From a virus (lineage: Duplodnaviria; Heunggongvirae; Uroviricota; Caudoviricetes), in IMG/VR virus record IMGVR_UViG_2795385844_000002, positions 1 through 64,000 of that record: DNA of 64,000 nt; one strand, 5' to 3'. A program made the translations under genes and the position numbers. The notes beneath the pieces were generated by a model. It did not search any database, was not told the origin of the DNA, and saw only the letters and a program-made list of their open reading frames with translations. Below, piece after piece: positions 7,921 through 52,472 of the stretch. Within the stretch, counting starts at the first letter, position 1. The number at the start of each line of letters is the position of its first letter.

Positions 7921-8615
7921 GGCCGATCCTCCAAGCCCTGGATTATCTCGATGATCTGATCAAGCGCCACGGGCTTGTCGTCCCACGCGTCAACACCGAC
8001 GTGAATCTGATTGATACGTGCTGGTTTGTTGCGCAGCGCAGCACCACGCCGCTTGGCCTCCCGGCCACCGATACTCAGCTTCTCCGGGCTATGCGTGTGG
8101 CCATGCAAGATGTAATGCCCATAATCAGGCAGACGCCACTCGGGATAGCGATCCTCATCCGTGTGGTCACCCGTGTACGGAAAATGTGACAGCATCGCGG
8201 TCACGTGACCATCTCTCAGGGGAATTCGAACTTTCGCGGCCAACTGAACACACTCAAATGGTGCAGGCCTGTCGGGTTGATCCTGGCCAAGATAGATGGG
8301 CAACCACTTATGCGAGTCGCGGTGCAAAGGATGTGTGCCACAATGATTTCCCGGAATACCGCGCTTGCGGCCAGGACGAGCCCGCAGCCAATCCAGGGCC
8401 CTCAATTGCGCTGTCTTGGTGCCGGACGAAATGTCACCCAACACCCACACGATATCGTCAGGCGCAACCATGCTGTCCCAGTTACGGGCCAGCTGCGCGT
8501 CATGAGAGTCGATCTCCGCGCCTACGTAGCGTGGTAGCACCCATCCACGAGTGCGTTCCCTGGCCACCTTCTCGTGGCCGATATGTAGGTCAGATGTGAA
8601 CCACACATTGCTCAT
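7917..8615 (-). CDS. calcineurin-like metallophosphoesterase
   Basis: Motifs SDLHIGH, GD, GNH and GHTH typical of Ser/Thr phosphatase-type phosphoesterases. Confidence 0.8.
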   Translation of the reverse strand: MSNVWFTSDLHIGHEKVARERTRGWVLPRYVGAEIDSHDAQLARNWDSMVAPDDIVWVLGDISSGTKTAQLRALDWLRARPGRKRGIPGNHCGTHPLHRDSHKWLPIYLGQDQPDRPAPFECVQLAAKVRIPLRDGHVTAMLSHFPYTGDHTDEDRYPEWRLPDYGHYILHGHTHSPEKLSIGGREAKRRGAALRNKPARINQIHVGVDAWDDKPVALDQIIEIIQGLEDRP

Positions 8616-9448
8616 TCGATCACCTCAGTGAATGGCCCGAATCGCTCTTCGAGCAGACCTATGGAGCGCAAGGTGTACCACTCCTCGTCCCCAACCTTCG
8701 ACTTCCATGAACCCGAGCCGAACCTGTACCGACGCCCTACTAGGTCATCCACGGGACTCCACACGGTGCCGTCTCGGGCCTCTTCGCAATCCAGGCTCGG
8801 AAGTACACGGGGCTCAAGGATTTCGGTGTAAGGAGGCAGCGCGTCAGGTTCATAGGCATCCCCGTACAGATCACCGCCCAGGCCACCGCTCACCCATCGG
8901 GTGCCGTCGTGCCAGAACTCCAGCCCAGCACAGTTCCGCCACCGTGATCCCTGCTCGTCTACCCCTAGACGGTCAACGACACGGGGTTCCCGGTAGGGCT
9001 TGGGACGTCGTTCCTCCCAGTGCTGACGGATTTCGCCGCCCACATCTTCAGCAGTGCGCTCCGGTTCCTGTTGTGCTGTTGGGTCGGGCCGAGGCACAAT
9101 CGGCTCTTCGCCAGGTGGGAACCAATCCAACCCTACTTGTTCGGGCCACTCGTCGGGGCGGATCTGCGGCCAAGAGTCGGCGTCGTATTGGTTCTTTCGG
9201 GCAGGGGCATTCGGGTTCAGCTGGAAGTATTCCCAGAATGGTGCATCAAGACCCACTGTTCGGTGAGCAACCCACCCCCCGTCTGGTCGTCGTGCGATGG
9301 TGCCAACAGGTGCACCCTCGGGGATGCTGTTAGCGGCAGCGATGATCCGGTCTATGTACTCATCGGTGGTGTCCACCCGGCCCTGCCACTCATCAGCGGC
9401 CTCACCCATCGCTTTCCGCTGCGCTTCAGTCGGATTCAACACGTTCAC
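8612..9448 (-). CDS. hypothetical protein (278 aa); C-terminal domain paralogous to the product of 35743..36234
   Basis: Shared C-terminal pattern LDC(D/E)EARDG(T/A)VW...YRF..G.W...EVI. Confidence 0.6.
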   Translation of the reverse strand: MNVLNPTEAQRKAMGEAADEWQGRVDTTDEYIDRIIAAANSIPEGAPVGTIARRPDGGWVAHRTVGLDAPFWEYFQLNPNAPARKNQYDADSWPQIRPDEWPEQVGLDWFPPGEEPIVPRPDPTAQQEPERTAEDVGGEIRQHWEERRPKPYREPRVVDRLGVDEQGSRWRNCAGLEFWHDGTRWVSGGLGGDLYGDAYEPDALPPYTEILEPRVLPSLDCEEARDGTVWSPVDDLVGRRYRFGSGSWKSKVGDEEWYTLRSIGLLEERFGPFTEVIE

Positions 9449-10764: not shown

Positions 10765-11277
10765 TCACCGTGCAAGAGCGCACGGTCCAGTGTGTGGGTC
10801 GACGTGGTAACTGGCTGGTGGTGAACATAGCGGGCCGCTGTAGCCGAAATTGGTAACCGAGATCCCCGCGCGCTCTGCTCGCTTCATGCAATCCCAGGTA
10901 CCGCGTGAATCCTTCAACGGGAAGGCGATACACGTATCGGCACCACGGTCGACCATCTCCTGGTTTCGCAGGTGCCCAGCGACCGGGCAATAGCGAGTAC
11001 CGTTCTTCCACCGAACGGCATGAGTGCAGTGCTGGTCGCAGTCTCGGTACCAGTCCGCAGGAACGCCCTCGTTCATTACCGGAAAGCCCTTAGCCATCGC
11101 TTCGTCGGCCCACTGCGATGCGAACAGGTCAGCACCGCTCGGGCACTCCCCCTGCACCACAACGAGATCGCCCTGGCCGCGCTTCCCTGCAATCGCAAGC
11201 TGGGCATTCAGAGCGGAACGTACGAACTTGCGGGACGGCCAGGCCCGACTACCTGTAACCAGAACGCGGCGCGTCAT
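10765..11277 (-). CDS. DUF2493 / SLOG-family (DprA-like Rossmann) protein
   Basis: N-terminal VLVTGSRAW motif typical of DUF2493. Confidence 0.5.
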   Translation of the reverse strand: MTRRVLVTGSRAWPSRKFVRSALNAQLAIAGKRGQGDLVVVQGECPSGADLFASQWADEAMAKGFPVMNEGVPADWYRDCDQHCTHAVRWKNGTRYCPVAGHLRNQEMVDRGADTCIAFPLKDSRGTWDCMKRAERAGISVTNFGYSGPLCSPPASYHVDPHTGPCALAR

Positions 11278-11372
11278 AGCAAGGCACCCACAACTGTCAC
11301 CAATAGGCCGATCACCGCAACGACCATCGCAACCGGCAATAGTGTCAGCGGCAGGTCATAGACCAAACCCAT
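11274..11372 (-). CDS. tiny membrane peptide (32 aa)
   Basis: Internal ATG of a longer low-complexity ORF; hydrophobic; ATGA overlap with the 10765..11277 start. Confidence 0.3.
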   Translation of the reverse strand: MGLVYDLPLTLLPVAMVVAVIGLLVTVVGALL

Positions 11373-11431
11373 GACGCACATTCCTGACGGAACCCCTACG
11401 AGTACGCCCGACCAGTATGGAACGAGAGGGT

Positions 11432-11542
11432 TCAATGCCCCCACCTCAGCTCCATCAGAGTCGGGAAGATTAGGACCAGGATGACCACGAGCCCACCCAT
11501 CGCCAGTGACACGTACCAAGCCCAATCGTCCAGGCGCTTCAT
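11432..11542 (-). CDS. tiny membrane peptide (36 aa)
   Basis: MKRLDDWAWYVSLAMGGLVVILVLIFP...; ATGA overlap with the upstream gene. Confidence 0.3.
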   Translation of the reverse strand: MKRLDDWAWYVSLAMGGLVVILVLIFPTLMELRWGH

Positions 11543-11838
11543 AGCTTCTCCAGCTTGTAGGTTGAAAGAACCTTCCTGATCGCGCCTGGATAAGTCCACC
11601 CCTGTCCGGTCTCCTCTTCCACGGCGGCAATGAAGGCCTTCTCGACAGCCTCCTGCTCCTCAAGTGCCTGGTAAGTCTCAGCACGCTCTCCGAGCCATAG
11701 CGCGACCTCTCGGATTCGGTCCGTGCCTGGACTAGATGGGCCGGAAGAAATCCCGCGCCATATAATGTCGCGCGCGAACAAAATCATTTCCGGCGTGACA
11801 GTCGGAATCCTCTCGAAGTCATAGGGATTCGATGTCAT
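11539..11838 (-). CDS. hypothetical protein (99 aa)
   Basis: ORF track. Confidence 0.5.
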   Translation of the reverse strand: MTSNPYDFERIPTVTPEMILFARDIIWRGISSGPSSPGTDRIREVALWLGERAETYQALEEQEAVEKAFIAAVEEETGQGWTYPGAIRKVLSTYKLEKL

Positions 11839-11948
11839 GCCTGACGCTCCAGCTTGATGTTCTCAATCAGCTCCGCTACCGACGCTACGAAGTCAACGAC
11901 GCTCAGGGCGACGATTGTGATGCTCAAGTACTTTCTGAATTCCTTCAT
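11835..11948 (-). CDS. tiny membrane peptide (37 aa)
   Basis: MKEFRKYLSITIVALSVVDFVASV...; ATGA overlaps on both sides. Confidence 0.3.
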   Translation of the reverse strand: MKEFRKYLSITIVALSVVDFVASVAELIENIKLERQA

Positions 11949-11988
11949 ATACCAATGCTATTGAGCGATTCTGGGTTCATGTGGGTAC

Positions 11989-12017
11989 GAAAAAAGCCCC
12001 CAGCTTTCGCTGAGGGC
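11989..12017 (-). terminator. rho-independent terminator (minus strand) at the downstream end of the tRNA array
   Basis: GC hairpin GCCCCCAGC/GCTGAGGGC followed on the minus strand by UUUUUU. Confidence 0.5.
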
Positions 12018-12025
12018 TCTTCGAG

Positions 12026-12099
12026 TAGTCCATGCGGGAATCAAACCCGCACCAACACCTTGAAAAGAGGGTGGTGTGCTCTCACTACACCAATGGACC
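12026..12099 (-). tRNA. tRNA-like element, non-canonical (T-loop TTTGATT, anticodon arm does not fold)
   Basis: Acceptor GGTCCAT/ATGGACT, D-arm GTGT..GCAC and a perfect T-stem GCGGG/CCCGC, but no 5-bp anticodon stem; contains TTTTCAA. Confidence 0.3.
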
Positions 12100-12105
12100 T
12101 TAGGG

Positions 12106-14772: not shown

Positions 14773-15066
14773 ATTGTTAGAGGCTGAGAGTACACCCGCT
14801 ATCGAGAACCTTTCGCAGCATTATGGATTCGCTGCTTCTCCAGGCCATCCCTGACCTAGTTCTCACGCCTGGTCCGTTACCGTGAACCACTCGTTATGCC
14901 GAAAGCTACTCTGCGGCTTTCCCTTCGCGATGAGATGGCCGTCTCACTGCTGCAGTACTTGCCTACAAACCGCACTCACCTTGCGGGACTATTGTGCGGC
15001 CCAGATTCCCGAGGGTCTGGGATTAAGGCGCTTTTGCTCCTCGGCAGGGGAAGGACTTTTGCTTTT

Positions 15067-15138
15067 AATTGACGACGGGACTTGAACCCGCACATCCAGT
15101 TTCCAATAACTGGTGACCTACCGTTGGTCTACGTCATT
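15067..15138 (-). tRNA. tRNA with 8-nt anticodon loop TATTGGAA (Gln-TTG or Pro-TGG-like; possible quadruplet or frameshift decoder)
   Basis: Good D (GACC/GGTC) and T arms; anticodon arm CCAGT-TATTGGAA-ACTGG is 18 nt instead of the usual 17. Confidence 0.5.
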
Positions 15139-15592
15139 CTCACAGCGGAGAATGATTTGACTAGAGACGTGCTTCCCCATGAAGTTCCGAACCCTTTTGG
15201 GGCACAGAATGCTTCACGCCTCTCGTGCTTTCGCCTGGCGGGGCTAATTACACTCTCTCTCAACCACATTGCGAGCCGTCGCCCGACGCGAGATCGATCA
15301 TGGAACACGCCCTTGCTTGCGAGGCTCGGACTCAGTTCCTTCCGTTCCACAGGGCGCTCGTTCAATAGCCTTTTCACACGCACGTACGTGATGGTGTCCT
15401 CAGCACTTTGCCGTTGGACGGGGCGTAACTCGCAACCTGGCAGCCATCTCTGACTGCTCAAGGATTGGATTGCATGGATTGCCCTTGCGGGTGGTGGGTT
15501 GTCACCCCACCTTTCACCACCTTGCGGTGGCTTATGGGCCATACCCCGAATGTCTTAACTATATCTCCCACAACAGAGTTCGTGTGGGTGAG

Positions 15593-17230: not shown

Positions 17231-17304
17231 ATTTCCAGATTTTCAGGCCCTGGTAGCCCCTCTTGCTGAACTAAGTCTACGACCCACCCACATGAACCCC
17301 TAGC

Positions 17305-21573: not shown

Positions 21574-21839
21574 TCGGGGGCCGCGAAGCAGTCGAGGGTC
21601 GTACCAGCGAGAAAGGCCTCGAACAGCATGTTAGTCATCTCGCCGCGCTCTTCTACGGTCTGCACCCAGACGCTCTTTGGAGGCGCTACGAGTGTGTCGG
21701 GGCCTGCGACGATTAGGAGGTAGCGCCCATCCTCCAGTGCGACAGTGAGGTGTCCGTTGGAGTAGTGGAATGGGAGCCGCGTCCCAGGTGTTTTCAAAGT
21801 TTCCATGTGTCCCAGTCTATTTCGGTAAAATGGGATCAT
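21570..21839 (-). CDS. hypothetical protein (89 aa) starting MIPFY at a motif-embedded ATG
   Basis: ATG at 21839 lies within TACCCACATGATCCC; longer upstream extensions look non-coding. Confidence 0.45.
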   Translation of the reverse strand: MIPFYRNRLGHMETLKTPGTRLPFHYSNGHLTVALEDGRYLLIVAGPDTLVAPPKSVWVQTVEERGEMTNMLFEAFLAGTTLDCFAAPE

Positions 21840-21847
21840 GTGGGTAG

Positions 21848-25172: not shown

Positions 25173-25456
25173 GCGCGAAGCTCCTCCAAGCAGCGACTAG
25201 CCATTGCTTGAACGCGGGCAAGTTGATCCACCAGATTCACGCCTCCCATGAGGCGATGCCCAACCTCATATGTTTCGAAGCGGATATCTGACAAGGCACT
25301 TCTTACTTTGTCTAGTCGGCTAGACAAAAGGTGGATCGTAGTCTGCTGTGTCGCAATGATTTCCGCCATCGTCTGAATGCTGCCATTCAGCGATGCCGTT
25401 GCGCCCCAGTCGTTTCCATCCATGGAAATAATCGTATCGACGGGATTTGGGTTCAT
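25169..25456 (-). CDS. hypothetical protein (95 aa) starting MNPNP at a motif-embedded ATG
   Basis: The ATG at 25456 lies inside GGGTTCATGTGGGTG. Confidence 0.5.
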   Translation of the reverse strand: MNPNPVDTIISMDGNDWGATASLNGSIQTMAEIIATQQTTIHLLSSRLDKVRSALSDIRFETYEVGHRLMGGVNLVDQLARVQAMASRCLEELRA

Positions 25457-25592
25457 GTGGGTGAGAAAAAGTAGAGCCCCGGTCGGCGGCGCGTGAGAGG
25501 GCGTCTAGATACATCGACCGGGGCGACTACTGGAGCGTAGCTCTACAGCAGCTACTTACATTATATAGCTATGGCGTGCAAGCCTGGGTTTG

Positions 25593-26693: not shown

Positions 26694-26857
26694 ACAGAGA
26701 GGGTATGACAACCGGCACCCACATGAACTGCAAACGCCTCCCCGCCGATGCACAGATACCCTCCCAAGTCTCGTTTGGCAGACTGTAACCCTGGTCACAC
26801 GGGGTCTACATCTGGGGACTCGGCTTTACCAGACAACTGACTGGTTGGGTTTGCCGC

Positions 26858-29392: not shown

Positions 29393-29746
29393 TCAGTTGC
29401 TGGACCATGGGTCTCGTAGATCGATGTCTCTATGATATTCGGCTCCCAGTAGGTTCATGTGGGTGAACTTCCCCAGGTGGTGCTGGTATATCGGGATGGA
29501 AGCTGGCTCTTCCCAAGGCCTTACGTGATAGCCCTCAGAGTGTGCTGCGTTGGGGTTGTGTTCAATCCACCCATGGCAACCGACCGTTCCGTGTCCGCAC
29601 ACGTGGACGATGTTGTCGAGGCTCCACAGGCCTCCCTGAGACCTCTTCTTGCGGTGGTGCATAGACAGTCCACCACCGATGCCGCAACGCTCGCATAGGC
29701 CACCTGAGCGGCGTGAGACCTCTACGCGGCACTGCTTCTCGGTCAT
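29393..29746 (-). CDS. HNH endonuclease
   Basis: CERCG...HHRKKRSQGG...CHGWIEHN HNH motif; start at MTEKQ (29746), one nt overlap with the upstream stop. Confidence 0.6.
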   Translation of the reverse strand: MTEKQCRVEVSRRSGGLCERCGIGGGLSMHHRKKRSQGGLWSLDNIVHVCGHGTVGCHGWIEHNPNAAHSEGYHVRPWEEPASIPIYQHHLGKFTHMNLLGAEYHRDIDLRDPWSSN

Positions 29747-34598: not shown

Positions 34599-35053
34599 GC
34601 TGGTGTCACTTTCTTCTGAGCCTGTAGGACTGTGCCGTGACTCCGGGCAACCCCTCGGATAAGTTCGACAACCTGTCCCTGAGTGCGGCTCGGGTCGTCG
34701 TTGTAGGCCGACACATCCCCGCCGAATCCAGCCGGGATGGCGCGCGAGATCAACCGGTGGGCACCCCACCAGGCGCGCATATCGTCCCGAGCAGCCGACT
34801 TACCCACCGCAGCGTCCAATGCCCCAAGGATGTCGTAGCGCACAGCGTCACCGACACGCTCGTGTCGCACACCCTGTGTCCAACCATTTGCTAGCAGACG
34901 CGCTGCAATCTGGAGAGTTGCCGCTACAGCCTCAGGATCATCCAGCACCACAACGTTGTTCTTGCGGGCGAGACGGCGCAGCCAGTTAGCAGTAGACATA
35001 GCTGCAATTTTATCAACTACCCACATGATGCAGTTTGCTGGCGAACCATCCAA
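34595..35053 (-). CDS. hypothetical protein (152 aa)
   Basis: ORF track. Confidence 0.45.
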   Translation of the reverse strand: MDGSPANCIMWVVDKIAAMSTANWLRRLARKNNVVVLDDPEAVAATLQIAARLLANGWTQGVRHERVGDAVRYDILGALDAAVGKSAARDDMRAWWGAHRLISRAIPAGFGGDVSAYNDDPSRTQGQVVELIRGVARSHGTVLQAQKKVTPA

Positions 35054-35346
35054 CTATTGTCACGAGCCTTGTCTAGATCCCATGGTTCAGCACCCATATT
35101 CCGTAGCTCACGACACACCCTGGTGCGCTGAATCTTGAGTGTCAGCACGGCGTCAGCGTCAGATTCCCTGTGCCGCTCACGAATTGACTCATCAAGCAGG
35201 AAGAGGTCGAGAAGCTTCTCGTTCCTACTCTCCAGAAACTTGGCTGCGGATTCACTCACGCATACCAGGCTGAACCCATACACCGACTTGTTCGTGTGGG
35301 TATGAGCGCCGAGGGACACGACCCCCTCGGCGGCGCGACTGCGCAC
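35017..35346 (-). CDS. hypothetical protein adjacent to the divergent regulatory region
   Basis: ORF track; start uncertain (GTG at 35259 possible). Confidence 0.35.
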   Translation of the reverse strand: MRSRAAEGVVSLGAHTHTNKSVYGFSLVCVSESAAKFLESRNEKLLDLFLLDESIRERHRESDADAVLTLKIQRTRVCRELRNMGAEPWDLDKARDNSWMVRQQTASCG

Positions 35347-35742
35347 TCAGGTCGACAGGAAGGGATACTACTTTGCTCGGCCTCCCTGAGTCTCGAAACC
35401 CATTCTACTGATCCTGGCTTAGATGGAATCGCACAACGGAAATAATGAACCATTTCCGCAGGTCAGGATCTTTCACCCACATGAACCCCTGCGCCATGTC
35501 GTAGCCTCCTAAAAGGAGAGTGCGAACGCAGTGAGCACGCACCTCCCGCTAGGGAGGCCCACGCCGGATTGGCGTGGCTGCCCGAAGGGCATCAACCTCC
35601 AGACCGCAGCGTCCCCACTTGAGCATGGTTCTCGGTGAAATGAATAACCCTTGCAGTCAAGGTATCTCACGTTGAGGTGGAGGTAGTCGTTACGTAAGTC
35701 GGGAACGGTACTAGAGCGCGTGCGCGCGAGCCCGCTACCCAC
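35347..35742. promoter_or_regulatory. divergent intergenic regulatory region containing two copies of the ACCCACATGAACCC motif
   Basis: About 400 bp non-coding between minus- and plus-strand gene blocks; motif copies at 35474..35482 and 35737..35745. Confidence 0.5.
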
Positions 35743-36234
35743 ATGAACCCGAAATGCGCTGCAAGACTTTGTGACATGGGAATTGAAGTACAGAAGGCTC
35801 GCGGGAATGAGATCATCTACCGCACTCCGAACGGCCCTATCCATATCAAGGCTTGGGACGACAACGCGGGAATCTGGTGCCTATCGCTCAATGCTCCCGA
35901 CCGATACCCGAACGGATCGCGCAAGCAAACTACCCGCACTCTGAACATCGGGCCCCAGAGCCACGCGGATATTGAGGCGTTCGTCCAGGCTTTCGCCGTG
36001 ATCTACGAAGCCGCGGGCAGATCGAAAGCCCCTCGCAAGCTCGGCGGTCTGGACTGCGATGAAGCGCGTGATGGCGCGGTGTGGGCTGACTCGGATGAGG
36101 GATTCCCTTTTCACTACCGATTCCGTGGTGGTAACTGGGAATACCTCGCTCTCGCTGGGGAGAGTAGCTGGAAGGTACTGGACGACCCGTACTCGCTTAT
36201 CGGCTACGGCCCCTATGTCGAGGTGATCGCGTGA
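35743..36234 (+). CDS. hypothetical protein (163 aa) starting MNPK; C-terminal domain paralogous to the product of 8612..9448
   Basis: ATG embedded in the conserved motif; C-terminal LDCDEARDGAVW...YRFRGGNWEYL...PYVEVI. Confidence 0.6.
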   Translation: MNPKCAARLCDMGIEVQKARGNEIIYRTPNGPIHIKAWDDNAGIWCLSLNAPDRYPNGSRKQTTRTLNIGPQSHADIEAFVQAFAVIYEAAGRSKAPRKLGGLDCDEARDGAVWADSDEGFPFHYRFRGGNWEYLALAGESSWKVLDDPYSLIGYGPYVEVIA

Positions 36235-37034
36235 GCCATCACTCCCCTCGCCACAAGGAGATCGCCGCGAAAGGACTAATCCTCCTCACTGAGGTTGGAT
36301 CCGGCCTCCACGGTGTGACCCTGGAGGGCACTGACGACCATGACGAGATGGGTATCTGCATTCCCCCACCGGAATGCGTTCTGGGCCTGGAGAAGTTCGA
36401 GCAGTACGCCGATCGTTGGCGCTCAGACGGGACACGCATTCCTGACGGAGTGCGCAGTCAGCATGGCGATACCGATCACACGACGTATGCATTGAACAAG
36501 TGGGCTCGCCTTGCAGCGCAGGGGAACCCGACCGTTCTACTCCCGTTGTTCGCACCCAAGGGAAAGATCTATAAGCAGACGCTGGAGGGCACTCAACTTC
36601 TTAGGGCCCGGAGTCTGTTCCTCTCGAGGGACGCTGGGTGGCGGTTCCACGGTTATCTGAAAGCGCAGCGTGCGCGCATGATTGGCGAAAAGGGTGTGTC
36701 GAAACACAAGAATCGCCGCGAGCTGGTGGAGCAGTTAGGTTTCGACACGAAGATGGCCTACCACGCTCTGCGCCTAGCCGTCCAGGGTTCAGAACTGATG
36801 ACTCACCAAACCATCACAGTTCCCATGGCTGCATCGAACGTGAATTGGCTTCGGTACGTGCGCAATGGCGGCGCATCACTCGAATACGTGACACGGTGGC
36901 TGGATCAACTTACCGCTGCGCTTGAAATCGACATCGCGGCGTCGAGCCTCCCCGATCACGTTGACCACGACCAACTGAACGACTTCCTAATTGGCCTGCA
37001 CTACGGCTACTGGAAACGCACCGGTCAACTCTAA
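36231..37034 (+). CDS. Pol-beta superfamily nucleotidyltransferase
   Basis: GSGLHG-x7-DDHD NTase core motif; ATGA overlap with the upstream gene. Confidence 0.65.
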   Translation: MSHHSPRHKEIAAKGLILLTEVGSGLHGVTLEGTDDHDEMGICIPPPECVLGLEKFEQYADRWRSDGTRIPDGVRSQHGDTDHTTYALNKWARLAAQGNPTVLLPLFAPKGKIYKQTLEGTQLLRARSLFLSRDAGWRFHGYLKAQRARMIGEKGVSKHKNRRELVEQLGFDTKMAYHALRLAVQGSELMTHQTITVPMAASNVNWLRYVRNGGASLEYVTRWLDQLTAALEIDIAASSLPDHVDHDQLNDFLIGLHYGYWKRTGQL

Positions 37035-37052
37035 ACACGAAGGGATACGCAT

Positions 37053-37412
37053 ATGAGCAACAAGCGCAAGGACAGCATCGGAGTTCTCTCCAAGACTCAG
37101 GGAATGGTCAAGCTCGCGAAGCCGGGACCACCTGTCGCGGTTGGCACTCGCGTCACTGGGCACAACCTGGGCGCAGTGACGCACATTGTCTCGATCGAAG
37201 CTGAGCGCGTAGGTGAGAAGCGCGCCATCGGCATCACTTTCAATGAGGATGGCAGCCTTCACGCTGTGACCGTCCACTCCGCCGATGGTCCGCTCGCGGA
37301 ATTCAAGCCAGGCACCCATCTGAGCATTGGTGATAGTGGTGACCTTGTCGTGTTCGATGAGGAGCACTTCTACGACCCCGTCAGCGGTGCTGAGGTGGTT
37401 GAGGTTCACTAA
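37053..37412 (+). CDS. hypothetical protein (119 aa)
   Basis: ATG after the ACACGAAGGGATAC upstream motif. Confidence 0.55.
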   Translation: MSNKRKDSIGVLSKTQGMVKLAKPGPPVAVGTRVTGHNLGAVTHIVSIEAERVGEKRAIGITFNEDGSLHAVTVHSADGPLAEFKPGTHLSIGDSGDLVVFDEEHFYDPVSGAEVVEVH

Positions 37413-37681
37413 TGAAGACCTATGTCCACAACCCCACCGAGGTTGAGGCTATCCAGGTAGTGCGGCCATGGAAGGGCGTTCAAGACGCTGTCCCATTCGC
37501 TCACATGGTGAAGAAAGCCTCTGGCGCGTTCGACTACTTCAAGGTTTCATTTCCAGGCATCTCAGAGGTTGAGCGCGCGTACGAAGGTGACTGGATCGTG
37601 AAGGACCACGGTTACTACGAAGTGCTCACGAATGTTCAGTTCCAGTACTACTACGGAGACGCCAATGGTAACGGCGATTAG
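37412..37681 (+). CDS. hypothetical protein (89 aa)
   Basis: ORF track; ATGA overlap. Confidence 0.5.
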   Translation: MKTYVHNPTEVEAIQVVRPWKGVQDAVPFAHMVKKASGAFDYFKVSFPGISEVERAYEGDWIVKDHGYYEVLTNVQFQYYYGDANGNGD

Positions 37682-37955
37682 TGCTGGCATCTCCGAGATG
37701 GTGAATTCGGCGTTCGATGAATCTCGGTGTGAGGCTGAGCATACTGAGGTGAAGCACGAAGGAAAGATCGCTGCCCTCTGGGTTGGTCACACTTGCGCGG
37801 AACAGCTGTTATGTGAGGCCCACTTCAAATGCGCTGTTGATGTATGGATCCCACGCCACAAGCACACAGTCGCGACGATCGGCTACATCATCTGCGCGGA
37901 CTGCAATCGAAAGTTCCTCACCGCAGAGGAGTTCGTGACGGTGTATCCACTATGA
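37665..37955 (+). CDS. Cys/His-rich small protein (96 aa)
   Basis: Internal ATG at 37665; CEAEH...GHTCAEQLLCEAHFKC...CADC pattern. Confidence 0.4.
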   Translation: MVTAISAGISEMVNSAFDESRCEAEHTEVKHEGKIAALWVGHTCAEQLLCEAHFKCAVDVWIPRHKHTVATIGYIICADCNRKFLTAEEFVTVYPL

Positions 37956-38371
37956 CCATCACACTCCCCGACCTTGATGATCTCGACATGGAGTCCGTAC
38001 TGGAGAACTCCTACAAGGACTTCCATTGCAAGGGGTTCGACTACCTCTGCCTCTACCGCTCACCCGAGCTCACGCTGAAGGCCTACTTCTTCGAAGGTGA
38101 CGCCCAGGACGCGAGTGAGGTGGTGAACCCGCACAACCATCGCTACGACTTCCACACCACATGTCTGTCCGGCGCGGTGGAGAATCGCTGGTACCGGTCC
38201 TACCCATTCACCTTCGATACTGAGTCGAAGCCACAGAGCTACAACATGTTTGATTGGCACACGCCTCTGAACGGTGGTGGAGGCTTCACTATCAGTGGTG
38301 AGATCACACTGCAGAACTACAAGTCGATCCAACGCACCCCCGGTGCGTGGATACGGGATGGCTGCAGATGA
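37952..38371 (+). CDS. hypothetical protein (139 aa)
   Basis: ATG at 37952 (ATGA overlap); internal start of the 37844..38371 ORF. Confidence 0.5.
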   Translation: MTITLPDLDDLDMESVLENSYKDFHCKGFDYLCLYRSPELTLKAYFFEGDAQDASEVVNPHNHRYDFHTTCLSGAVENRWYRSYPFTFDTESKPQSYNMFDWHTPLNGGGGFTISGEITLQNYKSIQRTPGAWIRDGCR

Positions 38372-38567
38372 GCTGCACACCATCAAGATTCTGAAGCCAG
38401 ACACAGTTCTGTTTCTCGTGCAGTACGAAGACGTGGTGCCGTTGAATCAGCCAACGCAGACATTTACTCAGTCTGTCCAGCCACCTGACCTGTCAGGCTT
38501 GTACAACAAGTTCACCGCCGACCAGGCGGTGAAGAGGATCAAGCAACTGCAGGAGCTGATCGATTAG
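38358..38567 (+). CDS. hypothetical protein (69 aa)
   Basis: ATG at 38358. Confidence 0.4.
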   Translation: MAADELHTIKILKPDTVLFLVQYEDVVPLNQPTQTFTQSVQPPDLSGLYNKFTADQAVKRIKQLQELID

Positions 38568-38688
38568 GCGAGTGGAGCCACACCACGCGGCTACCTTTCC
38601 GCAGGTCGCGACCACTCAGGCCGCAAACTTTGACGGAGTTTTCTGATTCCAGTTTACGTGCAGGTCGTAATGCTCTACGTTGTTCCCT

Positions 38689-39930
38689 ATGTCTCGTGAC
38701 AAGACCTCTCGCAACCAGTACAAGACGTACTGGTGCCGGAATCTGCAACGCTGGCCAGATGTGCAGAAGGCCCGCCGTCGGGTCACGCCCGCTACTCGCA
38801 GAACGCTAGCGGCCCTCACCATCACAGCCGTCATGATCGGGGGCGCGAAGATCGTTAGCGACGAGACTATGCCAGGCAGCGGATTTTCGCCCGTGCAGAC
38901 CGCAGCAGCGGAGCCAACTGGTCCTCCCGCGCCAACCGGAGGCATGACCGATGGTGGCGGGCAAGGCTTTCAACCTCCGCAAATGCCTAGCTCAATGCCT
39001 GATTACCAGGGCGGCAACAACCAGCCGCCACTAGATCAGAACTCCGGAATTAGCATATACAATTCCGGCAATCCGCAAGCACCGCAACAGGTTCCGGGCC
39101 AGCAAGGCGGTCAGCAGCCCCAGCAGAGCTGGGATCAACCCGCACACGGGACGCAAATACCCGACTACTCCACCGCGCCCGGATACACCCAAGGCCCCGG
39201 CAAGCCAAACCCGGACTACCAAGCACCGCAACAGCAGTCGCCGCAACAGGGCCAACAACCCCAGCAGCAGCCTCAACAGCAGCAGCCAAGCCAGGCCCCC
39301 ACACAGACTCAACAGCCCGAGCAGCCGCAGAACAAGCAAGACGACACCACGCAGCAGCTCAACGAGCGCCAACAACAATGCCAGGCCGTCGCCCAGTCCT
39401 TTGGGAACCCCGCCGAAGAAGTGCTAAATGAGATAGTCGGTGAAATCCCCGATGCTCTCCGCAGCATGCTACCCAACGGCGGGCTACCCCGGCAGGGCGG
39501 GCCATCTCGGTCATGGAGCAAAGAGCCCTCCCCGGTGCCGGTTCCAAGCGGCGGCTGCAACGGACAATGCCCACCCCCAGAAGTGAAGGCTCAATGGGGC
39601 GTTATACGCACTGACTATACGGGTGGATTCAGGTCGCAAATCAACTCGATTGACGATATGAAAAGGATCGCACGAGACCTAGAAGACGCTCAGTCATCGA
39701 TGGCCGACATATGCAGTTATTCTTGGATACTAGCCTTCGCTAACGCAGTACCCTTTCTTGGCAAGGTGGTGGTTGGATCGGCTTCCTGGGGCTGCGCCCA
39801 GTACAACAACGCGGTAGGTGGTATGAAGACGGCTATATCTCGGGCGGCGGAGGAAGGTTTCTGCGGAACCATGGATTTTCATTATAACTTTTGGTGGAAC
39901 TTCACCAGACAAAAGTGCTTATTCGCCTAA
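38689..39930 (+). CDS. membrane-anchored Pro/Gln-rich protein with Cys-rich C-terminal domain
   Basis: TM LAALTITAVMIGGAKIV, long P/Q/G low-complexity region and a conserved Cys-containing C-terminal domain. Confidence 0.55.
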   Translation: MSRDKTSRNQYKTYWCRNLQRWPDVQKARRRVTPATRRTLAALTITAVMIGGAKIVSDETMPGSGFSPVQTAAAEPTGPPAPTGGMTDGGGQGFQPPQMPSSMPDYQGGNNQPPLDQNSGISIYNSGNPQAPQQVPGQQGGQQPQQSWDQPAHGTQIPDYSTAPGYTQGPGKPNPDYQAPQQQSPQQGQQPQQQPQQQQPSQAPTQTQQPEQPQNKQDDTTQQLNERQQQCQAVAQSFGNPAEEVLNEIVGEIPDALRSMLPNGGLPRQGGPSRSWSKEPSPVPVPSGGCNGQCPPPEVKAQWGVIRTDYTGGFRSQINSIDDMKRIARDLEDAQSSMADICSYSWILAFANAVPFLGKVVVGSASWGCAQYNNAVGGMKTAISRAAEEGFCGTMDFHYNFWWNFTRQKCLFA

Positions 39931-39950
39931 GACCCTGAGGTTAAAAGCCA

Positions 39951-40721
39951 GTGGATAAAAATTCTGTAAACAAAGCGCTCCGCATCACTCGGATAGTTCT
40001 AATTGTTGCGGGCCTAATCGGATTAACGCTTACGCTGTTCACTGACCTGCCAATGTCCCAGGTAGCGCTGTACCTCGTAGCCGCATATGGGATATGGGTG
40101 GTAGTCGATGCCATCGTGAACACCAGCAGCCGAAAACAGCTTTACCTAAAGCTAGCTGGAGTGGTAGCCGCTGTCGGTATTGCGTGGCTGGTTGTCGTAT
40201 TGCTAATACGCGGCATATTTGCTGGAGGAAATACTAGCTCGGTTGACCAGCAAGAAACTGAGCAGACTTCATTCTCGCCAATAGCGGGGCAATTCCCGCC
40301 AGACACGAAAACGATCAATCCTGACTTTCCCGCTGGAACATGTGTGAATCTTCACGGGTCTCGCACCAACGCCCAAGTCGACAAAGCCGGATGCGGTTCA
40401 CCAGAGAACAACTTCATCGTTGTGCAGCAGGTCCAGAAACCGAGCGAATGCGTTGGCGACGTAGACCAGAAGTACTACACCAACACAGCCGGTCGCGGCG
40501 AGTGGACAGTCTGCATGGATTACTACTGGGTCCAAGGCAGCTGCCTAAGCATGAACGGCTTCGAAATCAAACGGGTTAAATGCGATGACCGCACAAAACC
40601 CGCCCGTGAGAAGCCGGTACGACTAGCTCTCAACAGCACCAACATATCTAGCTGCCCATCAGGCGGCTACGCACATCCCGTACGTAGGTTCGTCGTCTGC
40701 ACTGAGACTCAAACTAGTTAA
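39951..40721 (+). CDS. membrane protein with Cys-rich extracellular domain
   Basis: Three predicted N-terminal TM helices; GTG start. Confidence 0.5.
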   Translation: MDKNSVNKALRITRIVLIVAGLIGLTLTLFTDLPMSQVALYLVAAYGIWVVVDAIVNTSSRKQLYLKLAGVVAAVGIAWLVVVLLIRGIFAGGNTSSVDQQETEQTSFSPIAGQFPPDTKTINPDFPAGTCVNLHGSRTNAQVDKAGCGSPENNFIVVQQVQKPSECVGDVDQKYYTNTAGRGEWTVCMDYYWVQGSCLSMNGFEIKRVKCDDRTKPAREKPVRLALNSTNISSCPSGGYAHPVRRFVVCTETQTS

Positions 40722-40722
40722 A

Positions 40723-41112
40723 GTGGTAGATCAGAACCTGCTTTCGGCTATATGCCTAGTGCTCACCGCGTTGGGAATTCGGGTAGTCCTGGCTGTTGTG
40801 TTTTATGTTGCTGGCGCGCTGCTCGGCCAGCGTTGGGCCACTTATGGCAACGTCGACATCGCGCTCAACCGGCTATTCAGGGTGCTACCCCGATGGGGTC
40901 AAGTGCTCGTCTCATTGGCAGTTGTTGCGGCCCTACTTGCCCTGTCCATACTTGCCACCGGCTCAGCAACCGGAGTTGGGCTCGGCATCATGATCTACCT
41001 GATAACCACCGCCACAGTCACACTGCCCACACCCGCGAACGCCACAGATCGCATCACAAGGTTCCCCCTACGGGAACTCGCGGGAGTGCCTTGTCGACGG
41101 CGGAATAACTGA
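40723..41112 (+). CDS. polytopic small membrane protein
   Basis: Multiple hydrophobic helices; GTG start. Confidence 0.5.
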   Translation: MVDQNLLSAICLVLTALGIRVVLAVVFYVAGALLGQRWATYGNVDIALNRLFRVLPRWGQVLVSLAVVAALLALSILATGSATGVGLGIMIYLITTATVTLPTPANATDRITRFPLRELAGVPCRRRNN

Positions 41113-41144
41113 ATTGCCCTCTGAGATCCCCTGTAACGAAAGAA

Positions 41145-41176
41145 CCCCGGCTCCACTACGGAGTCGGGGTTTTCTC
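41145..41176. terminator. rho-independent terminator between convergent gene blocks
   Basis: CCCCGGCTCC-ACTA-CGGAGTCGGGG hairpin followed by TTTTCTCTTG. Confidence 0.6.
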
Positions 41177-41200
41177 TTGCCTGCAGCCAGCTGAGGGCGA

Positions 41201-50741: not shown

Positions 50742-52472
50742 CTAACTAATGAGGTGGACACCGATGTTCTGGAGGATGTCCTTGATCTTCTTAGTTAGCC
50801 GAGCAAGACGTTCACCGACCGACATTGCGGCCTTGTTCTGCCCGATCTTCACCTGGACGCTGAGTGGCGTATTGGACGCGTTATCCCACGAAGGAATGAT
50901 CTCCTCGACCTGGGAAACGAAAATTCGGTCACCGTATCCACGGCTAGTGGAACCGACACGGGAACCAATTGCGAAGTGTGCACCCGGAATAATCCACGAG
51001 TTACCCCTCAATGACAGTGTATGCGAGGTCTCAGACTTCGACGCCAGAAAACCACCACGTAGAGCGGCCAGCGCAGACAGCGACCACGAGTTGTTTTCGG
51101 CACCCTGCTGGTACAGCTCCCAAAGGTGAACCCACCCAAGGTTCTTCGCGCGGCCAGTGTTCTTCCACTCCAACCACGCGGCGATCGTGCCCACCAGGAA
51201 TGGCATGATCACATCAGCTGCGATGGTTCCCGCCGACGAGAATCCACCAAGTAGGAAGTAGCCCAGGATATTTCCGGTGGTCTCGATGATCAAACGTGCA
51301 ATGGCATCCGCTGCCGGGTTGTCACCACCAACCACCACAGACACTGCAGTGGCAGGGCTCCACGTGAGCTCGCTGGTCTCGACTGGAGACCAGCTCGAAT
51401 CTCTGATGACCAACCACGGCATTTGCGCCAAGGTGGCAAGCCACCCACTCCCGTAGTACTCGTCAGGGTGGTAAGTCTCATCATCTGCGATGACTGACGC
51501 GGTGTCCTCAATGAAGCCACCGACATACTGCACGACCGAACGGACCATGCCATCTGCGATCGTTCCGCCGAGGAAGGTTCCGCCAAGGATTGGGTTGTAA
51601 TAACCGCTGTCGTCAACGATCTCGAAGATCAAAGCGCCATTCGCGGGCGTTTCAACGAACAGAATGCCATTCTCAGTCTCACCCTCATCGGAGAAGCAGC
51701 GCCTCCACCTGATGGTCAGCTGTGCATCCTCCAAGGCGTCCGCGATTACCGAATCGATCGGGTTCATGCGGGTACCGAGGACGGTCCACAGGGACGAATC
51801 ATCAAGCGGCAGTGGATTGGCCTTGATGTGACACTGCCAGTTTTCCCACTCGGTAGGCAGTAGCCCTAGCCACTGACTCAAATCGAATGGATCGTCTGGC
51901 AGGTGGTAGATCGGTGCCTGCACCCGAATCAGGTTGATCAGGATCATGATCGAGCAGGCCCATTTCGCGGGGCCCAGGATGGGCAGCACCCTTGGCCACT
52001 GGAAAACTGGGATGGGCAGGGCCGGATTCGGTGGGCCCAAAAGGAACTGGAGGAACTGGAGGTCGTCGTTGAACGTCAGCTCCATGTACGCCATGCCATC
52101 TCGCATCTTCTTGGCATGGTGGTGAAGCAATCCCGTCCAACGGAGCTTGCCGCCGAAGAAGTCGATGCGGATGACAACGTTCTTGCGCGCGTGAGGATCA
52201 TCAGGAATGGAGCGCATCCACTCCGAGATGTAGTGATCGAAACGCAGCTCAAGCACGCCCTGAGTGGAGGTGTTCTTCTTGAACGGGAACGAGGCCTTGA
52301 TAGTGTCGCGGTAATCGACACGTCCGTAGTACTCCAGGCCTGGCGATCCGTCTTCCTTGTTGCGCCAGAAGGAGATCACCGGCTTTGCCATGCGAAGCCA
52401 CATCAGCTCCTGGCGATAGGCCTCGACAGACTCATTGATGCCCGAGATCTCCTCGAGCGTCCTTAGACTCAT
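50742..52472 (-). CDS. minor tail protein (large, about 576 aa)
   Basis: Immediately downstream of the TMP-adjacent minor tail gene; start at MSLRTLEE. Confidence 0.6.
   Translation of the reverse strand: MSLRTLEEISGINESVEAYRQELMWLRMAKPVISFWRNKEDGSPGLEYYGRVDYRDTIKASFPFKKNTSTQGVLELRFDHYISEWMRSIPDDPHARKNVVIRIDFFGGKLRWTGLLHHHAKKMRDGMAYMELTFNDDLQFLQFLLGPPNPALPIPVFQWPRVLPILGPAKWACSIMILINLIRVQAPIYHLPDDPFDLSQWLGLLPTEWENWQCHIKANPLPLDDSSLWTVLGTRMNPIDSVIADALEDAQLTIRWRRCFSDEGETENGILFVETPANGALIFEIVDDSGYYNPILGGTFLGGTIADGMVRSVVQYVGGFIEDTASVIADDETYHPDEYYGSGWLATLAQMPWLVIRDSSWSPVETSELTWSPATAVSVVVGGDNPAADAIARLIIETTGNILGYFLLGGFSSAGTIAADVIMPFLVGTIAAWLEWKNTGRAKNLGWVHLWELYQQGAENNSWSLSALAALRGGFLASKSETSHTLSLRGNSWIIPGAHFAIGSRVGSTSRGYGDRIFVSQVEEIIPSWDNASNTPLSVQVKIGQNKAAMSVGERLARLTKKIKDILQNIGVHLIS

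Follow-up and report, generated by a model that had tools for sequence, protein, structure and literature searches.

Locus organization

The window, that is, the whole 64,000-nt stretch analysed here (IMG/VR virus record IMGVR_UViG_2795385844_000002, positions 1 to 64,000; Caudoviricetes), contains a pair of same-strand genes, gene 1 and gene 2, preceded by a conserved non-coding leader and followed by four further genes (Table 1). The phage is a cluster-M-like (Mclasvirinae) temperate mycobacteriophage or prophage of Mycobacterium abscessus, and the window shares 93-96% identity with prophiT49-2. The locus is flanked by the lysis cassette on one side and by divergently transcribed recombination/replication genes on the other. 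Elsewhere, the same phage encodes about 21 tRNAs, tmRNA, PTH2 and an RF-1-domain protein. RtcB was not found in the window by tblastn, and a YAcAr/SLOG gene takes the place of the prophiT49-2 RtcB, which in that prophage lies about 25 kb from the nucleotidyltransferase (NTase) gene in a separate operon. Because the window holds no RNA ligase of any kind, there is no sign of a full repair pathway encoded by the phage.

Table 1. Features of the locus and of the paralogue-bearing gene (positions in the window)
Feature	Position	Strand	Remarks
14-nt motif ACCCACATGAACCC, copy 1	35475..35488	+	5' edge of conserved non-coding element
248-nt conserved non-coding element	35489..35736	+	hairpin-rich leader or candidate ncRNA; between motif copies, upstream of operon
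14-nt motif, copy 2	35737..35750	+	contains ATG 35743
Gene 1, two-domain protein of unknown function	35776..36234	+	152 aa (most likely extent)
Gene 1 N-domain	35776-36024	+	aa 1-83; hypervariable, beta-sheet plus helix
Gene 1 C-terminal module	36025-36231	+	aa 84-152; conserved, acidic, Trp-rich
Translational-coupling junction	36220..36234	+	SD-like GAGGTG 5 nt before NTase GTG start; read from sequence
Gene 2, RlaP-family (PF10127) Pol-beta nucleotidyltransferase	36231..37034	+	267 aa
Rest of operon	37053..38567	+	tblastn of prophiT49-2 gp59-gp62
119-aa gene	37053-37412	+	
89-aa gene	37412-37681	+	homologue of prophiT49-2 gene annotated 'PGDYG protein'
96-aa gene	37665-37955	+	Cys-rich
Homologue of prophiT49-2 gp59 'oxidoreductase'	37952-38567	+	frameshifted here
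Paralogue-bearing gene	8612..9448	-	278 aa; two tandem module copies
Paralogue module copy, weak	8816-8989	-	aa 154-211; domain i-E 0.16
Paralogue module copy, strong	8615-8824	-	aa 209-278; domain i-E 2.2e-31

Both open reading frames of the initial annotation, 35743..36234 (+, 163 aa) and 36231..37034 (+, 267 aa, with a GTG start and containing VGSGLHGVTLEGTDDHDEMG), are present, and the NTase is translationally coupled to the upstream gene, as had been proposed, through a stop/start overlap and an SD formed by the last codons of gene 1. The four overlapping bases (36231-36234), previously read as ATGA, are GTGA. The SD-like GAGGTG corresponds to the codons for the terminal '...EV' of the gene 1 module, and the paralogous gene ends likewise (GAGGTGATCGAATGA) onto a metallophosphatase gene. 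Such an overlap had been regarded as a toxin-antitoxin-like hallmark; it is more frequent in this phage type than any other kind of gene junction, measuring exactly 4 nt at 32 of the 76 same-strand junctions in the prophiT49-2 annotation. Nor do the two genes form an operon by themselves: they head a six-gene operon in which four further tightly packed same-strand genes extend to 38567. None of these four has a Pfam match, and their PHROG matches are all of unknown function.

Assignment of gene 2 to the RlaP family

The identification of the gene 2 product as a Pol-beta-fold NTase is borne out by a full-length match to Pfam RlaP (E 5.1e-31, 108.7 bits against a cut-off of 23; residues 15-254 on profile positions 19-248 of 249) and by the invariance of its catalytic motifs. 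It also matched phrog_388 'nucleotidyltransferase' (E 1.7e-62) and is 96.6% identical to prophiT49-2 gp63 'nucleotidyltransferase', and PF10127 was detected in 120/120 of its NTase homologues among the matches listed (195 found). The Pol-beta signature is present, namely hG[GS] (as GS), DxD and a third Asp, and an alignment of 62 sequences (mean column identity 45%) shows no variation at G23, S24, D35, D36, D38, D80 and D82. The full-length Pfam match and the GS/DxD/third-Asp set are shared with RlaP of Pseudomonas fluorescens and P. aeruginosa and with T4 NrdC.11. Other models gave nothing: DUF1814/AbiEii, KNTase, ANT and NTP_transf_2 of Pfam were without a match at E <= 1, as were the PADLOC models, and no NCBIfam signal was seen. 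On these sequence grounds, gene 2 is a genuine member of the RlaP family of Pol-beta NTases.

The predicted structure is consistent with this assignment. The AF2 model (pLDDT 92.8, pTM 0.89) places an NTase core (strands within residues 16-116) before a helical domain (helices within 118-264, the terminal one at 246-264). An N-terminal NTase domain followed by a C-terminal helical domain, the last helix of which packs back, is described for the PfRlaP crystal structure (PMC12776372), with which the model was set side by side by description only. Neither search of the PDB with gene 2, by sequence or by Foldseek, brought up an RlaP structure; by phmmer, gene 2 is too distant from the solved chains, none of which, the Pseudomonas RlaPs included, matched at E <= 10.

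The same gene is annotated 'nucleotidyltransferase/NrdC-like' in 445 phage records, widely among actinophages. The family takes its name from an RNA-ligase gene neighbourhood, which holds for some members only. A candidate fusion of RlaP with the gene 1 module (a Rosetta-stone link) was rejected; the N-terminal extension of the longer P0164 protein is an Acb2/Tad1-hairpin-like ORF, not the module.

Gene 1 and its C-terminal module

Gene 1 had been given a start at 35743 ('MNP'), which is probably wrong. In prophiT49-2 an in-frame TGA separates the equivalent ATG from the next one, and in prophiGD54-2 and a Mycobacterium chelonae prophage a 1-nt deletion shifts it out of frame. Furthermore, all homologues, several of them 152 aa long, start 'MGI...' at the position of ATG 35776, and ATG 35743 is itself part of a non-coding 14-mer that occurs repeatedly in the window (ACCCAC-ATG-AAC-CC). 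Gene 1 therefore most likely comprises 35776..36234 and encodes 152 aa.

The N-domain is only about 25% identical to the prophiT49-2 allele, while the flanks are 96-100% identical, and the allele swap is confined to gene 1. No match was obtained for the gene 1 product in Pfam, NCBIfam or PADLOC, and no HTH or antitoxin-like domain was found. Its structure was predicted with moderate confidence (pLDDT 77, pTM 0.48), and the model had no informative structural neighbour. An alignment (MAFFT) of the N-domain with the N-terminus of the family of the 278-aa paralogue proved on inspection to be forced and was discarded. Gene 1 is most probably no antitoxin but a modular protein whose N-domain is diversifying rapidly.

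The C-terminal part of about 70 aa is paralogous to the C-terminus of the 8612..9448 (-) product, as first noted in the initial annotation (BLASTP E = 1e-11, 41% identity over 71 aa). Since the two copies differ at many synonymous positions, the paralogy is at the protein level rather than the result of recent gene conversion. The 8612..9448 gene has 4-nt overlaps with a calcineurin-like phosphoesterase gene downstream and with a 229-aa gene upstream, the latter preceded by PTH2. Its product belongs to a family of 228 proteins (E <= 1e-3), nearly all from Mycobacteroides prophages. The module of about 69 aa, usually in tandem, forms the C-terminus of >100 Mycobacteroides prophage proteins that otherwise differ in architecture, and is fused to HTH_XRE, WDGH and dATP/dGTP pyrophosphohydrolase domains. 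Its distribution is narrow, with 42 cluster representatives among 1.84 billion. Neither module protein of the window matches DUF7183 (PF23811), itself an uncharacterised family, at E <= 1. It is matched weakly, over the module region, by close homologues of the 278-aa paralogue (24-28 bits): P0010 and P0014, at 24-26 bits, stay below the cut-off of 27, and P0083 reaches 27.7 bits.

A DNA- or RNA-binding role had been suggested for the shared module. This idea finds no support, the module being acidic (pI 4.5; median 4.7 across 93 copies). Our best guess, by inference, is that it is a protein-protein interaction handle for a common partner. Its use as a marker of RNA-repair neighbourhoods was also considered and is weakened by other M. 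abscessus prophages, which place module proteins among replication/recombination genes.

Conserved leader and 14-nt motif

The 248-nt element upstream of the operon is 92-98% identical in prophiGD54-2 and the M. chelonae prophage, the flanking genes of which are about 75-88% identical. Its folding energy is lower than expected (MFE z-score -2.35 on the plus and -2.86 on the minus strand), and variation is located in the predicted hairpin loops. Among 10 variants, 0 of the 76 predicted pairs show compensatory change, so that an RNA structure in the leader is putative. Rfam gave no match for the leader, nor for unrelated contigs that carry its 17-mer core; these low-GC contigs are probably chance matches. 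On the minus strand, the leader also contains a small ORF that has a strong SD; this was dismissed, as its ATG is not kept in prophiGD54-2 or L009.

The 14-nt motif bordering the leader occurs 10 times in the window with up to two mismatches (0.71 expected; no shuffle gave 10), and its orientation matches the local direction of transcription. ATG 35776 lies 25 nt past copy 2, and start codons are spaced by 24-25 nt at the copies at 11973, 21832 and 25449. The motif is thus a candidate promoter- or start-associated element.

Proposed function

Characterized RlaP enzymes add one or two NMPs to RNA 3'-OH ends, including those of tRNA, in a Mn2+-dependent reaction that needs three strictly conserved Asp residues; they label RNA, not protein or DNA, are active alone in vitro and also label intact tRNA and rRNA (PMC12776372). 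Given the homology of gene 2 to the characterized Pseudomonas RlaP enzymes, we infer a similar activity and substrate: gene 2 would most likely extend RNA 3'-OH ends, preferably those of broken tRNA, by one or two NMPs in a template-independent manner. Such addition could restore nucleotides lost to host anticodon nucleases, and gene 2 would then serve as a counter-defence or RNA-repair enzyme in a tRNA-rich phage. The repair rationale is also drawn from PMC7824862. The products of RlaP carry a 3'-OH and are not direct RtcB substrates (preprint PMC12776372).

The setting resembles that of known RlaPs in several respects: gene 2 is modelled with the same order of NTase and helical domains, the phage is rich in tRNA and translation-rescue genes, and its close relatives carry RtcB. 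It differs in that gene 2 stands outside any rtcB/rtcA or ligase operon, in a window that lacks an RNA ligase, and is preceded by a lineage-specific modular gene. As RlaP labels intact tRNA and rRNA in vitro, gene 2 may have a non-repair role.

Overall, we favour, with some confidence, an RlaP RNA-repair NTase at the head of an accessory operon together with a modular, non-antitoxin gene 1. Gene 1 would be co-expressed with RlaP through the GTGA overlap and the SD in its own last codons. As a best guess, its module would bind a common protein partner, and its variable N-domain would meet a diversifying target, which could be a component of the host or of a defence system, or else a type of damaged substrate. 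That gene 1 has a host-interaction role independent of RlaP is nearly an even proposition.

Relationship between the two genes

It is less likely, though still worth weighing, that gene 1 serves RlaP as a dedicated partner, that is, a specificity or regulatory subunit whose module docks on RNA-end-processing enzymes and whose swappable N-domain picks damaged tRNA or senses a nuclease. Its upstream position is conserved: gene 1 precedes RlaP throughout Mclasvirinae, even where NTase identity falls to 55%, and mostly with a stop/start overlap, which is of 4 nt in the window, prophiT49-2, prophiGD54-2, the M. chelonae prophage and Rey. The cluster M phages Rey (gp55/gp56) and Bongo (gp47/gp49) have the same gene pair at the same genomic position, with NTases 55-56% identical to gene 2, and a large conserved divergent intergenic region upstream, as here. 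Their upstream proteins combine a beta-sheet/helix N-domain like that of gene 1 with two (Rey) or one (Bongo) module copies; however, the N-domains are very diverged from that of gene 1, and the leader-flanking repeat is of the CCTGTAATC type rather than the ACCCACATGAACCC of the window. In addition, both module genes of the window are translationally coupled to possible RNA-end enzymes, RlaP in one case and, in the other, the calcineurin-like phosphoesterase, whose gene lies close to the tRNA array, PTH2 and RF-1.

Several observations nevertheless speak for looser ties. RlaP works unaided in vitro (PMC12776372), and its genes in cluster C1, L, Wildcat-like and Gordonia phages have no module gene upstream. 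An extra small ORF is tolerated between the two genes in Bongo (55 aa) and L014, and the N-domain allele was swapped with no change in RlaP. Elsewhere, most module proteins are found amid replication/recombination genes, with no adjoining repair enzyme. A bolder version of the partnership appears improbable: the module would be a docking handle bringing swappable recognition domains to RNA-end-repair enzymes, with gene 1 as a quickly evolving specificity adaptor directing RlaP to particular damaged tRNAs or attacking host nucleases, and the 248-nt element could be a co-evolving regulatory or substrate RNA.

The initial annotation had instead read the pair as a toxin-antitoxin or abortive infection system, in which a MenT/AbiEii-like NTase toxin blocks tRNA acceptor ends and gene 1 is the antitoxin. 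Some resemblance is real. A small gene comes first and the NTase second, with a 4-nt overlap, as in MenT/AbiEii (DUF1814) with MenA/AbiEi; both NTases belong to the Pol-beta superfamily and add nucleotides to RNA 3' ends independently of a template. The general chemistry that had been proposed, nucleotides added to tRNA ends, therefore stands, since RlaP acts on RNA and tRNA 3'-OH ends, those of intact tRNA in vitro included, formally as MenT toxins do (PMC12776372). However, gene 2 belongs to another family, being a full-length PF10127 protein with none of the DUF1814/AbiEii or PADLOC matches expected of such a toxin, and no MenT or AbiEii structure is among its best 50 Foldseek PDB matches. 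Assignment to a CBASS-type enzyme was discarded as well, since Pfam, PADLOC, NCBIfam and the Foldseek matches gave nothing of that kind. Membership in a benign family had been named beforehand as evidence against a toxin, and on the family side (RlaP/PF10127) this is what was found. The supposed antitoxin lacks a wHTH or any other antitoxin domain and has been replaced by a 25%-identical allele beside a 96.6%-identical NTase, whereas a cognate toxin and antitoxin would be expected to co-vary. The junction is of an ordinary type, and the pair lies within a longer operon in the lytic part of the genome and is not a self-contained two-gene unit. Hundreds of lytic and temperate phages carry the same NTase with no gene 1 beside it. 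We consider the toxin-antitoxin reading very improbable.

An aminoglycoside nucleotidyltransferase-like resistance enzyme, proposed from structural similarity for cluster M and C phage proteins in a study that itself calls a resistance role uncertain (PMC12363180), is equally hard to credit: the nearest solved folds by Foldseek are indeed ANT(4')/kanamycin NTase, AadA and AAD(9) (E 2e-5 to 1e-3), but the similarity is distant (TM 0.3-0.45 and 10-14% identity overall; TM 0.37-0.41 and 10-11% identity at E 2e-5) and stems from a Pol-beta NTase core and helical C-terminal domain common to all of them. Hailong HalB reaches scores just as good. By sequence, gene 2 is a clear PF10127 member without a KNTase or NTP_transf_2 match, and characterized RlaPs act on RNA. 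The enzymes with these folds serve different ends, ANT acting on antibiotics and HalB synthesizing oligo-dA.

Implications

The NTase is an ordinary known enzyme and gene 1 an uncharacterised modular neighbour. An NTase toxin-antitoxin pair, if true, would have been a new phage-borne tRNA-modifying toxin. Since hundreds of actinophages already carry annotated RlaP genes and the biochemistry of the family was recently described, the main value of this analysis lies in the corrected annotation, that is, the family, start codon, operon extent and junction; the open reading frames, the Pol-beta assignment, the coupling, the paralogy and the general chemistry of the initial annotation are retained, its ATGA overlap, start and two-gene operon are replaced, and its toxin-antitoxin reading and nucleic acid-binding module find no support.

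The presence of RlaP in a tRNA-rich temperate phage that has lost RtcB bears on whether RlaP needs a phage ligase. Gene 1 offers a clear example of allele swapping limited to one domain and carries a narrowly distributed, uncharacterised module that is reused across Mycobacteroides prophage proteins, and the conserved leader and 14-nt motif probably define promoters or starts of this phage group. As M. abscessus phages are in therapeutic use, knowledge of their counter-defence genes is of some practical relevance.

Gene boundaries and genomic setting

Over positions 35000-38000 the window resembles Mclasvirinae (cluster-M-like) prophages of M. abscessus, namely prophiT49-2 (93%), prophi86-1 (93%) and prophiGD54-2 (81%), and prophiT49-2 also matches its first 25 kb at 96%. 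On its minus strand lie 21 tRNA genes together with a tmRNA, and a PTH2 peptidyl-tRNA hydrolase, an RF-1-domain protein and a calcineurin-like phosphoesterase are also encoded. One tRNA called by ARAGORN (15066-15139, minus strand) has an irregular anticodon loop (tRNA-???, anticodon 'tg'), and its prophiT49-2 homologue is annotated tRNA-OTHER.

The initial annotation, which described a two-gene operon, is largely correct, with the start codon, the overlap sequence and the operon extent to be amended. Both reading frames, gene 1 and the nucleotidyltransferase (NTase) gene, lie where it placed them; in the annotation of prophiT49-2 the pair (gp64 'hypothetical protein' and gp63 'nucleotidyltransferase') heads a same-strand block of six genes, with the lysis cassette on one side and the divergently transcribed ERF/Cas4/ClpP genes on the other. 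A gene 1 start at ATG 35743, giving an 'MNP' protein, is very unlikely from comparison with relatives. Between this position and that of ATG 35776, prophiT49-2 has an in-frame TGA, and one nucleotide is deleted in prophiGD54-2 and an M. chelonae prophage; all gene 1 homologues start MGI... at the equivalent of 35776 (of six close ones, three have a length of exactly 152 aa), and ATG 35743 falls inside a repeated 14-mer, ACCCACATGAACCC. The NTase motif GSGLHG...DDHD is present as proposed. The overlap between the two genes reads GTGA (36231-36234) instead of ATGA, and the NTase start codon is GTG. A toxin-antitoxin-like architecture had been read from this overlap, but in phages of this type genes on the same strand meet more often through a 4-nt stop/start overlap than in any other way (32 of 76 such junctions in prophiT49-2), and the overlap is therefore uninformative on that point.

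Further downstream, the homologue of prophiT49-2 gp59 ('oxidoreductase', 205 aa, phrog_8313) occupies two reading frames at 37952-38567, with a break near 38340-38347, which may reflect a pseudogene, a frameshift or an error in sequencing. Between it and NrdH, about 2.6 kb (~38600-41200) without a counterpart in prophiT49-2 codes for a Q/P-rich protein of 416 aa together with two proteins, of 256 and 129 aa, that appear to be membrane proteins; this stretch resembles a moron and may be a secreted toxin-immunity-type cassette.

Coordinates of features in the window and of one open reading frame in cluster M mycobacteriophage Bongo
Feature	Position	Strand	Remark
Gene 1	35776-36234	+	152 aa, from the most likely start
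NTase (RlaP) gene	36231-37034	+	267 aa
278-aa protein gene	8612-9448	-	tandem module copies at aa 154-211 and 209-278
YAcAr/SLOG-domain protein gene	10765-11277	-	PF10686, E 1.7e-10
14-mer copy	11973-11986	-
14-mer copy	15576-15589	-
14-mer copy	17286-17299	+
14-mer copy	21832-21845	-
14-mer copy	25449-25462	-
14-mer copy	26717-26730	+
14-mer copy	29451-29464	-
14-mer copy	35475-35488	+
14-mer copy	35737-35750	+	holds ATG 35743
14-mer copy	51760-51773	-
Bongo gp48	L010 1755-1922		small ORF between module gene and RlaP

The nucleotidyltransferase and the RlaP family

By its sequence, the NTase is assigned to the known RlaP family of RNA-repair nucleotidyltransferases. PF10127 (RlaP, 'RNA repair pathway DNA polymerase beta family') covers it over the whole Pfam profile (E 5.1e-31; 108.7 bits against a cut-off of 23) and is found in 120/120 homologues among the matches listed (195 found). 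It also matches phrog_388 'nucleotidyltransferase' (E 1.7e-62), while NCBIfam and PADLOC returned no match and a sequence search of solved-structure chains found none. Residues G23, S24, D35, D36, D38, D80 and D82, which form the Pol-beta GS motif and acidic triad, are invariant in a 62-sequence alignment. In the AF2 model, which is confident (pLDDT 92.8, pTM 0.89), the NTase core leads into a helical domain whose last element is a long C-terminal helix, consistent with the domain layout described for the PfRlaP crystal structure (PMC12776372). The nearest solved folds are remote (E 2e-5 to 1e-3, TM 0.3-0.45) and comprise ANT(4')/KNTase, a structural-genomics NTase, Hailong HalB and AadA; the top 50 structural matches include no MenT or AbiEii chain. 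An AbiEii/MenT-like toxin-antitoxin reading of the pair is thus not supported, given the full-profile PF10127 match, these structural matches and the swapping of gene 1 alone.

The gene is found by tblastn in 445 phage records, mostly mycobacteriophages (clusters M, C1 and others) as well as Gordonia and Bacillus phages, where it is usually labelled 'nucleotidyltransferase' or 'NrdC-like'. It is not new as an annotation, as near-identical prophages already carry the former label.

Allelic replacement of gene 1

A sliding comparison with prophiT49-2 reveals a sharp island of divergence over exactly gene 1, with 96-100% identity on either side. Identity falls to 30-48% in the N-domain, 65-82% in the C-terminal module and 82% in the first ~50 nt of RlaP, and the RlaP protein is 96.6% identical overall. 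The two N-domain classes, 'MGIEVQ...' and 'MGIAYT...', are homologous (hhalign 95%, E 2.4e-8, 25% identity) and both recur in related prophages, independently of variants of the upstream element. The divergence is an allele swap of a fast-evolving domain. It is compatible with selection by an interaction partner that varies, but not with co-evolution of a toxin and its antitoxin. Gene 1 is a hotspot of allelic replacement. The 278-aa gene mirrors this behaviour, being the most diverged of its neighbourhood against prophiT49-2: its amino acid identity is 68%, whereas the phosphoesterase reaches 99% and the 229-aa gene upstream 86%.

A second, smaller island against prophiT49-2 (37480-37660; 62-71%, between flanks of 95-100%) lies over the C-terminal portion of an 89-aa gene, the homologue of which is named 'PGDYG protein' in prophiT49-2.

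A shared acidic C-terminal module

The proposed C-terminal paralogy of gene 1 and the 278-aa product is confirmed (BLASTP E 1e-11, 41% identity over 71 aa), and because the two DNAs differ at many synonymous sites, the similarity is kept at the protein level. The claim can be extended to a narrowly distributed, uncharacterised, acidic module that, by its HMM, is C-terminal in 101 of the 126 proteins retrieved. Most carriers have a second, weaker copy just upstream of the C-terminal one, and their middles vary, with HTH_XRE, WDGH and dATP/dGTP pyrophosphohydrolase domains among them; matches to DUF7183 are weak. When 1.84 billion cluster representatives were searched exhaustively with a profile, 42 matched at E <= 1e-3. 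The module was suggested to bind DNA or RNA; however, its acidity (pI 4.5, with a median of 4.7 across 93 copies) and its richness in Trp speak against this and favour a role in protein-protein contacts. Elsewhere among M. abscessus prophages, the neighbours of module proteins are genes of early replication and recombination rather than of repair.

The dATP/dGTP pyrophosphohydrolase domain is fused to the module in some Mycobacteroides proteins (P0047). Gordonia phage Dmitri gp55 (L011 1288-1995), which overlaps RlaP upstream, also looks by eye to be of this type, possibly by coincidence.

Repeated 14-mer and conserved upstream element

Ten copies of ACCCACATGAACCC (<=2 mismatches) occur in the window against 0.71 expected. 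They are mostly intergenic, some directly 3' of terminator-like hairpins; at most copies the internal ATG starts no more than a short ORF, and a real start codon follows 24-25 nt past the motif at four. The 14-mer may be a phage promoter or a start-associated sequence; at equivalent positions in Bongo, Rey and Reindeer its place is taken by a different repeated motif, of the CCTGTAATC type.

Plus-strand copies at 35475 and 35737 flank a 248-nt non-coding element (35489-35736; also 35320-35414) that is 92-98% identical in relatives whose genes are ~75-88% identical. It is rich in hairpins (z -2.35 and -2.86 for the two strands) and varies in the loops, with compensatory changes at 0 of 76 predicted pairs across 10 variants and no match in Rfam. 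The equivalent intergenic region retains a 26-nt core in Bongo and longer, looser stretches (48-53 nt, 77% identity) in Rey and L014, a 79.6-kb contig. The element may be a conserved leader, an operator/regulatory region or a small RNA. Its 17-mer core, GTGCGAACGCAGTGAGC, occurs once each in four unrelated IMG/VR contigs (L017, L019, L024 and L028; at least two visibly AT-rich), which gave no Rfam matches; this is probably chance at this database size.

Possible role in RNA repair and anti-defence

Pseudomonas RlaPs attach one or two NMPs to RNA 3'-OH ends, do not use DNA or protein, and work best with Mn2+ and on the broken end of a tRNA mimic that carries a nick; on tRNA short of one nucleotide, RlaP acting before ligation can restore aminoacylation, and T4 NrdC.11 belongs to the same family (2025 preprint, PMC12776372). 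Comparative genomics has predicted a phage counter-defence function against anticodon nucleases such as RloC (PMC7824862). Given this activity and prediction, the NTase would, by homology, most likely extend damaged tRNA 3' ends without a template. A caveat on this repair mechanism is that the RtcB of prophiT49-2 is missing from the window, replaced at ~10765-12100 (minus strand) by the YAcAr/SLOG gene and small ORFs, so that RlaP, PTH2, RF-1 and tRNAs are present but the ligase is absent. The 3'-OH product of RlaP is no direct RtcB substrate (PMC12776372).

A gene with the architecture of gene 1 lies directly 5' of RlaP with a 4-nt overlap in prophiT49-2, prophiGD54-2, the M. chelonae prophage and Rey, whose gp56 has two module copies. 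No module gene was found upstream of RlaP in Chaser (cluster L), MaryV (Wildcat-like), Dmitri or prophage CCUG48898T-2, and the link is thus lineage-wide within Mclasvirinae, not family-wide. In Bongo and L014 a small extra ORF separates the gene 1-like gene from RlaP. At L014 5001-6017 (contig ERR473314_60), a 67-aa Acb2/Tad1-hairpin-like sequence (PF24729, 28.8 bits, cut-off 27) is in frame with RlaP without a stop. The slot beside RlaP may collect anti-defence genes.
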